From a virus (taxonomy: Duplodnaviria > Heunggongvirae > Uroviricota > Caudoviricetes), in IMG/VR virus record IMGVR_UViG_3300045836_000108, positions 1 through 64,000 of that record: 64,000 nt of DNA; one strand, 5' to 3'. The translations under genes and the position numbers were made by a program. The notes under the pieces are model-generated. The model was not told the DNA's origin and did no database searches. It saw only the letters and a program-made list of their open reading frames with translations. Shown in pieces: positions 56,590 to 61,663 of the stretch; within the stretch, counting starts at the first letter, position 1; every line of letters begins with the position of its first letter.

Positions 56590-57183
56590 ATGAACAAGTC
56601 GGACCTGATCAAGGCGCAGGGCAAGGCCACCCTCAAGGCCGGACGCGCCAACGAGACCGTGGCCCTGGTCATCGACACCACCACCCTGTACAGCATCTCC
56701 AACGGCTCCTTCTACGAGCCCCGCTGGCGCAAGACCGTCAAGACGGTCTGCAAGAACGCCCGCACCGAGTCCACCGGCTGGCTGACCCTGTCGGTTCCCG
56801 GTATCGCCGTCACCGCCGAGGAGAAGGCCAACAAGAAGCGGCTGGAGAACTGGATCCGGAACTTCAACGGCTCCGTCTCCGACATCATCGACGCCAAGGG
56901 ACATCTGATCGAGGGCGCCGTGCCTACCGGTATCTCCCTGACGGTGGAGAACACCCGGGATTTTGCCCCCCGCGTCGAAGTTCCGCAGGCGCCGGTGGAG
57001 GAGCAGGGTTACTTCTCCGCGTCGGCCAAGGTGGCTCACACCGCCAAGTGCGCGTCGATGAAGGCGCCGCAGTTCCCGCTGAAGGCGGACGGCTTCAAGC
57101 CGCTGTCGGAGCTGTTCCAGATGATTGAGGACGGCCACGCGCACGAGTGCCGGTCCTGCGCGAAGGTCCGCGCCAACGACTGA
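56590..57183 (+). CDS. Cassette protein, Cys/His-motif family (197 aa)
   Basis: C-terminal QGYFSASAKVAHTAKCASMKA...ECRSCAKVRAND, shared with 57296..57751. Confidence 0.55.
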   Translation: MNKSDLIKAQGKATLKAGRANETVALVIDTTTLYSISNGSFYEPRWRKTVKTVCKNARTESTGWLTLSVPGIAVTAEEKANKKRLENWIRNFNGSVSDIIDAKGHLIEGAVPTGISLTVENTRDFAPRVEVPQAPVEEQGYFSASAKVAHTAKCASMKAPQFPLKADGFKPLSELFQMIEDGHAHECRSCAKVRAND

Positions 57184-57198
57184 CCGACGCAACTGAAG

Positions 57199-57272
57199 CC
57201 CCCTGGATCTTTACAGGTCCAGGGGGCTTTACATTGCTTAGCACTTCCCATAAGCTTGTACTCGTAAGCCAG
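57199..57272 (+). promoter_or_regulatory. Terminator hairpin + promoter module
   Basis: CCCCCTGGATCTTTACAGGTCCAGGGGG then CTTTACATTGCTTAG..TAAGCT..CGTAAGCCA. Confidence 0.6.
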
Positions 57273-57295
57273 ACCGAGCGACAGGGGAGACTGAG

Positions 57296-57751
57296 ATGAC
57301 CGCCGAGACCAAGACCGAGATGGTGGAGCTGACCGAGGCTCTGGTTGGCCGTTGGACCCGTCACTACGGCAACCTGGCCCGCATAGCGGCTGTCGGCGAC
57401 GTCGTCACCAAGATGGAGCGCACCCGGGGCACGATGCGCAAGACCGGCAAGTTCGTGGAGGTCCAGTACCGCGAGGTCACCCTGGAGACCAAGCCCGCTT
57501 CCGTCGTCCTGACCTCCAAGGCGATGTACCGCTGCGACGAGCTGTTCATGGTGCTGGCGCAGCCGGAGCCGCAGGGTTACTTCTCCTCCAGCTCCCGTAT
57601 CGCTCACACCGCTTGCTGCGCGTCGGTGAAGGCTTCCCCGATTGAGCTGATCCCCACCAACTTCCGGCCGGTGTCGGAGCTGCGGGCCATGATCGAGGCC
57701 GGGGACGCGCGTGAGTGCCGGTCCTGCGCGAAGATCAACGCCAACGGCTGA
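57296..57751 (+). CDS. Cassette protein, Cys/His-motif family (151 aa)
   Basis: C-terminal QGYFSSSSRIAHTACCASVKA...ECRSCAKINANG. Confidence 0.55.
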   Translation: MTAETKTEMVELTEALVGRWTRHYGNLARIAAVGDVVTKMERTRGTMRKTGKFVEVQYREVTLETKPASVVLTSKAMYRCDELFMVLAQPEPQGYFSSSSRIAHTACCASVKASPIELIPTNFRPVSELRAMIEAGDARECRSCAKINANG

Positions 57752-57756
57752 GCAGT

Positions 57757-57783
57757 CCGGCCGTAGCCCCCGGGAAGTCCCGG
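57757..57783 (+). terminator. Hairpin GCCCCCGGGAAGTCCCGGGGGC + TTTCTGC
   Basis: Directly after the stop of 57296..57751. Confidence 0.5.
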
Positions 57784-59010: not shown

Positions 59011-59029
59011 CGCACCGGAGGAGACTGCG

Positions 59030-60010
59030 ATGAACGACATCAAGCCCAAGTACACCAAGTTTCACGACTTCGGCAACCGCTGCATCAGCTACACGGTGGA
59101 CCACCCCACCTTCAAAGAAGCCAAAATGTACGTGGAAACCCGTCCGGCAAACGGCGGCTGGATCGCCTACGAGTCCCACGACGAGCAGACGGCGGTCACC
59201 GGCTCCAACCGGGGCAACGCCGTCGCAGAACTGCTGAAGCAGGCCGAGTACGTGGTGCGCGGACTGCGTCTCCAGAACGCGTGGCACGCCAAGGAGCAGG
59301 AGCTGGTCACCTTCTCCACCGCCTGGCACGCGCTGTACTCCGGCCGCGAGAACGCCGACGACACCGTGGCCGAGGGCAAGGTCACCGACAACTCCACCGA
59401 GTACTGGGAGCTGGCGTGGTCCGGCTACCACTCGTTGATGGACGAGTTGGAGGAGCGGGACCGGGCCCTGGCTGACAAGTACAACCTGGAAGACCTCCAG
59501 GCGTGTTCCTGGTGCGGCTGCCGTACCGCTGACCCGCAGCCGTACGACGAGGAGCGGGTCATGCACGCGGACTGCCTGGAGCACGTGCGGCTCCAGGAGG
59601 AGTGGGATGCGTTGGAGGAGTCGGCTGCCAAGACTGAGGCGGAGGCGTCGGCCAACGCGGAGCTGGAGACCATCGACTTCACCCCGGTTGGCTGGCTACA
59701 GACGGCGCTGGCCCACTACAAGGCGATCACGGCTAAGGGCGCGAGCGTTGCGGAGAGAGTGATTATGGCCGTGAATGCGCCGGTGGGCGCCGCTGTGATG
59801 GTTGAGGAGGATGAGCGGCACGTGGTGACCGTGACCATCTCGTTCCTGCCGGACGTGAAGATGGGTTACCTGTGGCTTCGGGCCGACAACGCCGCGCGGG
59901 CTTGGGCTCGACAGTTCGGGAACGGAGCCAAGCTGGTGCGGGTGTCAGCGGGTGCAACCTTGTCGAAGGACGCGGAGGAGCACCGGTTCATCTACAACTG
60001 GTCGGTCTGA
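59030..60010 (+). CDS. Cassette protein (326 aa), LWLRADNAAR family, with C2-type Cys motif
   Basis: C-terminus GYLWLRADNAARAWARQFGNGAKLVRVS; internal CSWCGC...C..H. Confidence 0.55.
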   Translation: MNDIKPKYTKFHDFGNRCISYTVDHPTFKEAKMYVETRPANGGWIAYESHDEQTAVTGSNRGNAVAELLKQAEYVVRGLRLQNAWHAKEQELVTFSTAWHALYSGRENADDTVAEGKVTDNSTEYWELAWSGYHSLMDELEERDRALADKYNLEDLQACSWCGCRTADPQPYDEERVMHADCLEHVRLQEEWDALEESAAKTEAEASANAELETIDFTPVGWLQTALAHYKAITAKGASVAERVIMAVNAPVGAAVMVEEDERHVVTVTISFLPDVKMGYLWLRADNAARAWARQFGNGAKLVRVSAGATLSKDAEEHRFIYNWSV

Positions 60011-60021
60011 CGTTTCTGGCG

Positions 60022-60100
60022 AGCCCCCTGGTCCGTACAGGTCCAGGGGGCTTTACTATGCTTATCGTTCCCACTAGGATTGTCCGCAGGACGAACTACA
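60022..60100 (+). promoter_or_regulatory. Terminator hairpin + promoter module
   Basis: GCCCCCTGGTCCGTACAGGTCCAGGGGGC, then CTTTACTATGCTTAT..TAGGAT..GGAGGAG. Confidence 0.6.
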
Positions 60101-60118
60101 AACCGGAGGAGAAGAAAG

Positions 60119-61663
60119 ATGGCCAGCCAGCCCGACTACACCTGCCGCCAGTGCGACAAGGACGTCAAGATCAACCAGGCCCTCAACAAGGTCCCCAAGC
60201 ACTACCGGCCCGGCACCAAAACCGTCTGCCCCGGCTCCAACGTGAGCCCGTCGCTGGTCTTCTCCGGCCTCAAGGACCGCAGCCAGGAGGAGAAGACCGT
60301 GAAGGGCGACCGCACCGCATACCAGGCCCTCGGCACCATCAAGGTCCACACCGAAGAGTGCCGGTCCGTCCGGACCATGCTGGCCAAGGCCAAGGCCGAG
60401 GGCCGTCCGGACGGCGTTCCGGCGTCCGGTTGGGTCTCCCACAACCGGGAGTTCATCCTGGAGGACATCCAGCGGAAGCCACAGCGGGACTGCGCCGAGT
60501 GCCGTCGTATCCGGCAGGCCCGTGCGGCCGTGGAGGCCGCTAACCGGCCGCAGATGACCGACCGGGAGCGGCTGGTCAACAACTTGATGGCGCAGCAGTT
60601 CGTGAAGGAATGGGGCGCGCTGTCGCCGCAGCTCCGGGCGTACGTCATTGCGGATTACATCGAGGCGGAGGACGCGGACCCGCAGGGTGCCGACGCCGGT
60701 CTGTACCGCCGCAACATCGGGACCGGGAACCTGGCGGAGTACGCGGCTGTGCTTAAGGCGCAGGCTCTGCGCAACGCTCCCAAGCCGGTAGAGGAGCCGG
60801 TGAAGGTGGCTGTGGCTGTGGTCACGGACGGCCACGGAATGTCCCGCGTCCACAACGCAGACTGCCGGGACGTCGCCCGTGAGGTCAACAAGGCTGGGAA
60901 CGGTCCGGCGTACGTACAGGAGTTCGCCAACCGGACGGAGCTGGAGCAGGACTGGTGGGGGGACGTCGCTGGCGACGAGTTTGAGGAGGGGACGCCCGAG
61001 TGGAAGCGGTCCGTTCGGATGTGCGCTGACGCGGCAATGGAATACCTGCCGTGCTGTACCCTTCCGGAACTTCCGGACTTTACTCCGCTTAGCGGTCCCA
61101 GTATGGTTGAAGCGGCACCGAGCAACCAACCGGAGGAGACTGCAATGGCTGCCGCCACCAAGAACACCCGGACCGCCAAGAAGGCGGCCCCCAAGCCCAG
61201 GGCCCAGGCCAAGCCTGAGCCGGAGCCCATGGGCTTCCTCAGCAAGACCGGCATTGCGCACACCGAGGAGTGCGCGACCGTCAAGGCCAACAACGCCGGG
61301 AAGCTGCACTACCCCATGGAGGGCGAGCAGATGGACCTCTCGGTCCTGATCGCCCACATCGAGGCCGACGACCCCGAGGACCGCTGGAAGGAGTGCGGTC
61401 TGTGCGCCAGGATCCGCCGGAACAAGGCCGCGCAGGACGAGTCCGCGACGACTCCGTCGAAGCCGGAGCTGCGGTTCGAGATCGTGTCCAAGGTCCTGGA
61501 CAAGCACGCCGTGTACCTCAGGGGATCCCGCAAGCTGGCCGGGTACGTCGAGAAGGCGCCGGACCTGGGCGGCTGGGCGTTTTACCCGTCCGGCAAGCAG
61601 CCGTCCGAGGACGACGTCCGGCCGTCCAAGGAGGAGGCTGGCGCGGCGCTGGTCGCCGCGTAG
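60119..61663 (+). CDS. Multi-repeat Cys/His-motif protein (514 aa) containing an in-frame embedded promoter module
   Basis: Three H-[TN]-x-x-C...C-x-x-C units (HTEECRSV..CAECRRI; HNADCRDV; HTEECATV..CGLCARI); module copy at 61064-61106 with in-frame ATG 61145. Confidence 0.55.
   Translation: MASQPDYTCRQCDKDVKINQALNKVPKHYRPGTKTVCPGSNVSPSLVFSGLKDRSQEEKTVKGDRTAYQALGTIKVHTEECRSVRTMLAKAKAEGRPDGVPASGWVSHNREFILEDIQRKPQRDCAECRRIRQARAAVEAANRPQMTDRERLVNNLMAQQFVKEWGALSPQLRAYVIADYIEAEDADPQGADAGLYRRNIGTGNLAEYAAVLKAQALRNAPKPVEEPVKVAVAVVTDGHGMSRVHNADCRDVAREVNKAGNGPAYVQEFANRTELEQDWWGDVAGDEFEEGTPEWKRSVRMCADAAMEYLPCCTLPELPDFTPLSGPSMVEAAPSNQPEETAMAAATKNTRTAKKAAPKPRAQAKPEPEPMGFLSKTGIAHTEECATVKANNAGKLHYPMEGEQMDLSVLIAHIEADDPEDRWKECGLCARIRRNKAAQDESATTPSKPELRFEIVSKVLDKHAVYLRGSRKLAGYVEKAPDLGGWAFYPSGKQPSEDDVRPSKEEAGAALVAA
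61064..61106 (+). promoter_or_regulatory. Intragenic copy of the hairpin + promoter module inside gene 60119..61663
   Basis: CCGGAACTTCCGG hairpin, ACTTTACTCCGCTTAG, 17-nt spacer, TATGGT, then GGAGGAG and in-frame ATG 61145. Confidence 0.45.

Follow-up and report, generated by a model that had tools for sequence, protein, structure and literature searches.

Three genes between positions 56,590 and 61,663 of a 64,000-nucleotide stretch of viral DNA (positions 1 to 64,000 of IMG/VR virus record IMGVR_UViG_3300045836_000108, below called the window) encode proteins that carry a small module with one His and three Cys residues. The proteins are designated gpA, gpB and gpF. The module is a conserved, autonomous and portable His-Cys3 domain. 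It is best read as a new and very rare His-Cys3 zinc-finger family, the fold type of which is probably known. The explanation that best covers the data as a whole is a portable structural zinc domain, ADA_N-like, in shuffled accessory proteins, with nucleic acid as the favoured partner; in our estimation it has an even chance of being correct.

The module in gpA, gpB and gpF

An earlier note on this DNA had drawn attention to the three open reading frames, and all of them were confirmed with coordinates and sequences as described. The note had also taken the C-termini of gpA and gpB to be homologous. They share 60% identity over 60 amino acids (E=4e-23), which corresponds to a module of about 61 residues. 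The two genes are neighbours, with 71% DNA identity between their 3' ends (repeat D3). In gpF, residues 369-439 matched gpB with E=1e-7 and gpA with E=2e-6. A second stretch of gpF, residues 66-138 (HTEEC...CAEC), was marginal by itself in pairwise BLAST and scored 3.8 bits with the module profile. Using a hidden Markov model (HMM) built from C-terminal-type modules only, it scored 14.7 bits (E=3.7e-6), and the equivalent copy in P0005, a carrier outside the window, reached 33 bits. An hhalign comparison of the two module subtypes gave a probability of 95.5% (E=1.5e-8). Because the relatives-informed HMM and hhalign join residues 66-138 to the C-terminal type, this stretch is, on the strength of profile similarity, a genuine divergent copy, and gpF has two modules. 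The pattern H-x3-C-x(20-75)-C-x2-C occurred five times in a six-frame translation of the window, and four of the five occurrences were modules; the Cys/His pattern is not a chance product.

The earlier note had counted the module three times in the 514-residue gpF. Two copies stood; the third site, HNADCRDV (His245), belongs to another domain. It was not detected by module profiles or HMMs and has no C-x2-C, and was rejected as a third copy. This HNADC domain comprises about 90 residues with H-x3-C ... [LM]-P-C(C) and is common to gpF, the N-terminus of carrier P0003, gp220 of Streptomyces phage LuckySocke and phrog_12580. The phrog_12580 HMM matched gpF residues 242-303 (E=7e-7), whereas the modules themselves did not match, and LuckySocke gp220 was related to the gpF domain with E=2e-3 in tblastn. 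LuckySocke gp220 (L009 866-2434) is a 522-residue protein encoded near the right end of that phage. The domain opens with the same beta-strand and H-x3-C turn as the module, yet it is longer, has a W-W-G/TPEW core and lacks the C-x2-C helix. A comparison of both reached only P=0.004. The HNADC domain may be unrelated or very remotely related to the module, perhaps an expanded version of its fold.

Distribution and conserved residues

The earlier note had proposed to look for the module in domain databases and to survey related phages for further copies. Exhaustive scanning with HMMER, over 1.84 billion protein cluster representatives, retrieved the three window proteins and only five others, P0003, P0005, P0006, P0007 and P0008, all from metagenomic contigs. 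Another hit, P0009, was rejected as spurious; it is a repeat protein of low complexity that has neither Cys nor His. The module had no significant match, and no confident assignment to a known domain, in Pfam, NCBIfam, PHROGs, PADLOC and PDB sequences; a PDB sequence search with the module profile yielded 0 matches at E<=10. In a word-indexed protein database neither module alignment found anything, and gpF found its own cluster only. A query of IMG/VR with gpB found nothing. The module was absent from 104 loci (about 1.4 Mb) around related terminases in IMG/VR and in sequenced actinomycete genomes.

P0003 sits in a 100-kb relative of the window phage (100,012 bp; Ga0136846_1210315) which is syntenic with the window in portal, terminase, plus-strand island and TROVE gene. 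The genes 3' of P0005 match those of the P0003-carrying phage. Wherever upstream DNA was available, the five other carriers had the same promoter-flanked gene layout or synteny.

The alignment comprised 11 modules from eight proteins with 19-59% identity. The His and the three Cys were invariant (11/11). In 11/11 modules, too, an acidic residue precedes the third ligand, and a basic one stands two positions past the fourth. Also conserved were S8 and T16 and, after the basic residue following CxxC, [ILVM] and R. The signature is G-[YF]-x-S-x(4-5)-[AV]-H-T-x2-C ... [DE]-C-x2-C-x-[KR]-[ILVM]-R. The module is 60-73 residues long, and C-x2-C comes 32-45 residues after H-x3-C.

Predicted fold and comparison with Ada and DUF6233

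AlphaFold2 on the 11-sequence alignment predicted a hairpin, then the ligand turn including a short helix, a strand, a helix, a short strand and finally the CxxC helix (E3-7, E12-14, H19-22, E33-35, H36-45, H52-60). The predicted local distance difference test (pLDDT) was 92.1 and the predicted template modelling score 0.74; the five models ranged from 83 to 92. A single-sequence model of full-length gpB (pLDDT 42) was unusable. The suggestion of the earlier note that the Cys and His residues mark a small zinc-type fold gained from these results: the module is a real, autonomous domain with four invariant candidate ligands and a confidently predicted fold.

Foldseek searches gave no significant match (E ~0.8 or higher in the PDB, ~0.2 or higher in BFVD). 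The top two PDB matches among 350,542 chains were the N-Ada/DNA complexes 1u8b_A and 1zgw, with template modelling (TM) scores of 0.48-0.49 over 52-56 columns. The BFVD matches included a 'DNA methyl phosphotriester repair domain protein'. In Pfam, the module of P0008 matched DUF6233 (PF19746) below threshold from the His to CxxC (E=0.065); with 13.8 bits it was the best of the 11 modules, against a gathering threshold of 27.6 bits. Ada_Zn_binding (PF02805) did not match the modules at E<=10. Profiles were then compared using ten DUF6233 proteins from Streptomyces plasmids and eight Ada-N domains plus E. coli Ada (nine-sequence alignment). Modules and DUF6233 were aligned by hhalign with P=0.0036, a weak link; all four ligands coincided, and the module had an insertion of 11 residues. 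With Ada-N, the module ligands were in register with Ada C38/C42/C69/C72 (P=0.09). DUF6233 and Ada-N were connected with a probability of 82% (E=1.1e-5), with His at the Cys38 position. The four-ligand spacing x3 ... x2 of ADA_N is kept in 11/11 modules, with His first instead of Cys. The nucleophilic first Cys of Ada (Cys38) is absent; the His at this position is invariant in 11/11 modules. He and colleagues are said to have identified Cys38 of Ada as the methyl acceptor in 2005. The ECOD paper names Cys69 of Ada as methyl acceptor.

The likeness to Ada-N may go beyond the spacing [C/H]-x3-C ... C-x2-C. In the predicted model, the first two ligands would come after core strand 2 and the other two on or beside a short helix at the C-terminus, strands and helices would succeed each other as in Ada-N, and both domains are often C-terminal; ADA_N-like domains are usually located at the C-terminus of multidomain proteins (PMC12353581). 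The module differs by its His in place of the first Cys, by an insertion of 11-20 residues after the second ligand and by A-[KR]-I-R after CxxC, where Ada has x-P. It lacks significant sequence or profile similarity to Ada-N and has no adjoining AraC-type helix-turn-helix (HTH) or methyltransferase domain.

DUF6233 is a domain of small Streptomyces and Kitasatospora proteins of unknown function, and literature searches on DUF6233 or PF19746 found no paper. It is encoded in 170 plasmid records, nearly all from Streptomyces. It shares with the module the His-first ligand set H-x3-C ... C-x2-C, a helix ('sreeA..aL..G') directly before CxxC, and the likely host clade of the module phage. In contrast to the module, DUF6233 has a short loop between Cys and helix (that of the module is at least 11 residues longer), an invariant C-x2-C-R-P-D end, the R-P-D tail of which is absent in the module, and an N-terminal coiled-coil-like extension. 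Its genes are chromosomal or plasmid-borne and lay beside a Ku gene in three of ten loci examined.

Other Cys/His motifs were considered as well. The ZAS motif of anti-sigma factors (H-x3-C-x2-C, e.g. RsrA) is a zinc-binding motif of actinobacteria. Like the module it begins with H-x3-C, yet C-x2-C follows immediately and the fold is all-helical, whereas in the module C-x2-C comes only after a strand and a helix; with a contiguous H-x3-C-x2-C absent, ZAS was rejected. WhiB was rejected because there was no Pfam match (Whib) and because the site has three Cys and one His and not four Cys with C-x2-C-x5-C. SWIM, primase CHC2 and the classical zinc ribbon were rejected for a misfit in ligand order and lack of a profile match.

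Considering these comparisons, the predicted model probably has ADA_N-like topology, and ADA_N-like membership of the module appears plausible from its ligand pattern. Because membership is plausible and not established, the module is filed as a new family with a His-Cys3 site which resembles an ADA_N/DUF6233 finger in the way it works and probably also in its fold. The statement of the earlier note that no named family can be assigned holds for significant sequence matches; it has to be qualified in view of the plausible ADA_N/DUF6233-like kinship.

Domain shuffling among the carriers

The earlier note had proposed a family with divergent N-terminal parts. All-against-all BLAST of the island proteins demonstrated that the carriers are modular and divergent outside of the module, the position of which varies: it is C-terminal, N-terminal, internal or present twice per protein. 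The N-domain of gpA is homologous to that of a 206-residue protein of locus L005 (11406-12026), where it is fused to a different C-terminal domain. This domain (WLRADNAAR...FxYNW) is shared by gpD and gpE, two further island proteins (gpD against gpE, E=8e-20), and had no database match. In homologues it thus replaces the module on the same N-domains. The N-domain of gpE recurs in P0006 together with the central domain of gpF and a module. In P0007 the order is permuted: the gpB N-domain comes after the module. P0008 is similar to the last 172 residues of gpF, including the gpF C-terminal domain, which both share; the gpF central domain is common to P0005 and P0006. In P0005 a TrmB-like winged helix lies between two modules (E=3.5e-5). 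Other Cys clusters were noted in gpE (C-S-W-C-G-C ... H-A-D-C) and at the N-terminus of gpF (C-R-Q-C ... C-P-G).

Promoter-like leaders

Each gene of the island (55012-61790) is preceded by a terminator hairpin followed by a leader, which reads GGGCTTTAC-nnn-GCTTAG, 9 nucleotides, TAnnnT (TAGGCT, TATGGT or TATAGT), GTAAGCCAAAC in most copies and GGAGGAG-ATG. Its core GGGCTTTACnnnGCTTAG is thus followed by a -10-like hexamer, a ribosome-binding site (RBS) and the start codon. In the window 13 matches were observed compared to 0.1 expected. Further matches outside the island are at 33053 (+), 50314 (+) and 63699 (-). The same leader precedes cassette genes in loci L005, L007 and L008 where upstream DNA was available. 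P0003, P0006 and P0008 each have it upstream; P0005 and P0007 begin at a contig edge. A promoter scan with the E. coli consensus recognised a single leader because the other -10 hexamers are of the TAGGCT/TATGGT type. The hexamers and the 17-nucleotide spacing resemble Streptomyces HrdB-type promoters. Because of this resemblance we infer transcription by the host RNA polymerase, possibly early in infection; with its own terminator, sigma-70/HrdB-like promoter and strong RBS each gene would encode an accessory protein transcribed by the host enzyme. GCTTAG in the spacer never varies. A plain sigma-70 promoter would not usually show this, and the hexamer might act as an operator or form an extended recognition element.

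A complete leader is also present within gpF, after the HNADC domain and ahead of module 3, with an RBS stretch nearly identical to that of gpE. Because this leader is full, with RBS and an in-frame ATG, gpF looks like two fused cassettes. The internal leader would be either a relic of cassette fusion or an internal promoter and start for a 172-residue product; such a shorter product may be similar to the stand-alone P0008.

What does the module bind?

We propose that the module is an autonomous metal-binding domain which most likely holds one structural Zn2+. The ligands would be His and Cys of the H-T-x2-C turn after the beta-hairpin and the two Cys of [DE]-C-x2-C-x-[KR]-[ILVM]-R, which opens the C-terminal helix. 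The order of ligands and secondary structure (beta, beta, ligand turn, beta, helix, short beta, CxxC helix) would then be that of ADA_N-like fingers such as the N-terminal domain of E. coli Ada and Streptomyces DUF6233. The site would be structural and not a methyl-transfer centre because His occupies the position of Ada Cys38, as it does in DUF6233. In the carriers, joined to variable domains of unrelated kinds, it would act as a portable module for binding or as an 'address', and the second, unrelated C-terminal domain of the gpD/gpE type can take its place. As its partner, nucleic acid, most likely the DNA backbone, is slightly favoured over a host protein. This is because of the Ada-like topology, the neighbouring winged HTH (wHTH), the Lys/Ala/Pro-rich linkers (just N-terminal to the module in gpF, residues 349-366, and in P0005), the invariant basic residues of the C-terminal helix and the isoelectric points (pI) of gpA and gpB (about 9). 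A protein target is nearly as likely because the pI of the module varies and ADA_N-like domains exist in secreted proteins.

Several points weigh against a DNA-binding, ADA_N-like finger. The pI of the modules spans 4.8-9.6, and no uniform electrostatic DNA-binding surface is evident. ADA_N-like domains are also found in secreted and membrane proteins, with no known function (PMC12353581); therefore, the fold does not predict DNA binding. In hhalign the nine-sequence Ada-N alignment reached only the above P=0.09 and E. coli Ada alone E=0.18, and no Pfam family reaches threshold for the module.

Instead, the same zinc domain could bind a host or phage protein; in an accessory island shaped by an arms race, it would be the targeting or inhibitor module which the carriers have in common. 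It would bring different effector domains to one host machine, e.g. a defence or DNA-end-processing factor. We regard this as a serious possibility, if one we tend to doubt. The exchange of the module for an unrelated C-terminal domain behind N-domains of the same kind agrees with it, as do the extreme turnover (five other carriers in 1.84 billion representatives, none in the 104 related-terminase loci), the variable pI and the non-DNA contexts of ADA_N-like domains. However, searches of PADLOC and PHROGs uncovered no homology to a known anti-defence or defence protein, a partner was not identifiable in silico, and the wHTH and basic linkers which adjoin the module point the other way. A bolder and rather unlikely reading sees module and gpD/gpE-type domain as alternative 'address tags' in a combinatorial effector system that would serve host takeover or counter-defence. 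A narrow actinophage lineage would then mix a few effector N-domains with swappable targeting domains, each gene being a promoter-terminator cassette which can be fused, as in gpF. Such a logic, equally improbable as it stands, would be like that of polymorphic toxin systems, and the module may recognise a specific host structure, e.g. DNA ends/Ku or the nucleoid.

The remaining explanations have far smaller chances. 3Cys+1His ligation is known in [2Fe-2S] proteins such as mitoNEET and IscR. Together with the invariant ligand set this would fit an iron-sulfur cluster or a redox thiol switch, and the proteins would be redox sensors. We consider this quite improbable: the spacing and the predicted geometry of knuckle and helix N-terminus are typical of structural zinc sites, the nearest neighbours of the module in structure and sequence, Ada-N and DUF6233, have Zn(Cys4)/His-Cys3 sites, and there is no similarity to the WhiB, NEET and Rrf2 families. 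That the module works in alkylation sensing or repair as Ada does, taking the methyl group from DNA methylphosphotriesters, might be read from the Foldseek ranking, headed by methylated N-Ada/DNA complexes, and from the equal ligand spacing. Against an Ada-type role as methyl acceptor stands the His that every module has in place of Cys38; the conserved Ada motifs TTGIFCRPSC and GFRPCKRC.P are absent, and neither hhalign nor PF02805 supported a relation. Such a role is very improbable indeed. Hardly credible is a recent duplication of gene ends with an incidental Cys/His pattern, as the adjacent gpA and gpB with their similar 3' ends might indicate. The module is kept down to 19-30% identity in proteins of other contigs, which contradicts this proposal; furthermore, the carriers have it at different positions, none of the four ligands varies and the fold is predicted with confidence. 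The preferred explanation thus continues to be the structural zinc domain with nucleic acid as favoured partner.

The phage, its island and its host

The window (63% G+C) is part of a metagenomic contig of 102,398 bp (Ga0466966_0000031 of JGI, the Joint Genome Institute). Because a contig of equal size with a different start point was present in two JGI samples, the phage genome is probably complete and circularly permuted. The contig has genes for portal, terminase, tRNA, RNA ligase and a TROVE/Ro60-like protein. The portal is only about 25% identical to that of any cultured phage. The terminase shares 55-69% identity with terminases of prophages or plasmids from Streptomyces, Kitasatospora, Catenulispora, Embleya and Streptosporangiaceae, which makes a filamentous actinomycete the probable host.

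The carrier genes are grouped in a plus-strand island of this uncultured actinophage of about 100 kb (features are collected in Table 1). A near-identity DNA search with positions 56000-62000 against 50,697 phage records yielded no match. Homologues of the 164-residue island protein were 40-48% identical and occurred in Catenulispora prophages and IMG/VR contigs. If GTG 62460 is the start codon, the product of the gene 3' of the island has an N-terminal C-P-G-S-C ... W-C-S-S-C-A-Q-V-I-R motif; this gene is followed by one for a 65-residue MerR/excisionase-like HTH protein. The TROVE (Ro60-like) protein and the RNA ligase are encoded side by side (L001/L002 15309-18315), about 4-7 kb past the end of the window. 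Four tRNA calls were made in the window, and tRNA-Met (56333-56408, -) falls inside the island. A tRNA-like gene (44184-44257, -), for which ARAGORN gave an undetermined two-base anticodon, lies beside tRNA-Pro and tRNA-Ala.

Table 1. Positions of modules, related domains, leaders and neighbouring genes in the window.
Feature	Position	Strand	Description
gpA, 197 residues	56590..57183	+	N-terminal domain (residues 1-~136) and C-terminal module
gpA module, residues 137-197	56998..57180	+	candidate ligands H150, C154, C187, C190
gpB, 151 residues	57296..57751	+	N-terminal domain and C-terminal module
gpB module, residues 91-151	57566..57748	+	candidate ligands H104, C108, C141, C144; sequence modelled by AlphaFold2
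gpF, 514 residues	60119..61663	+	two modules, distinct H-x3-C domain, central domain, C-terminal domain
gpF module 1, residues 66-138	60314..60532	+	divergent 'type 1'; candidate ligands H77, C81, C125, C128
gpF HNADC domain ('module 2'), residues 230-317	60806..61069	+	H245-x3-C249 ... L-P-C312-C313; separate conserved domain
gpF module 3, residues 369-439	61223..61435	+	candidate ligands H381, C385, C426, C429
gpD C-terminal domain	58765..58917	+	paralogue of gpE 59855-60007 (repeat D5)
Promoter-like leader 5' of gpA	56508..56593	+	repeat family D1/D2/D4
Equivalent leaders	55012-55094, 57214-57299, 57931-58016, 58553-58636	+	repeat family D1/D2/D4
Equivalent leaders	58951-59033, 60038-60122, 61771-61790	+	repeat family D1/D2/D4
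Complete leader inside gpF	61053..61147	+	-35-like TTTACT, GCTTAG, -10-like TATGGT, RBS GGAGGAG, in-frame ATG 61145 (M343)
164-residue protein, signal peptide	61837-62331	+	sole island gene with homologues near related terminases
Gene 3' of island	62460-63286		conserved in L006 and L008

Implications

Since the phage is uncultured and its host uncertain, the practical impact is limited. If confirmed, the findings would define a new, extremely rare His-Cys3 zinc-finger family and extend the recently defined ADA_N-like group to phages. If confirmed, the link between DUF6233 and Ada-N would further bring into this group a Streptomyces family that is widespread and has no known function. The locus offers a clean, natural case of domains shuffled between phage cassettes that are apparently each transcribed on their own. 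With an apparent cassette fusion in which promoter, RBS and in-frame ATG are retained, it is a tractable system for studying how phage accessory proteins are assembled from parts.

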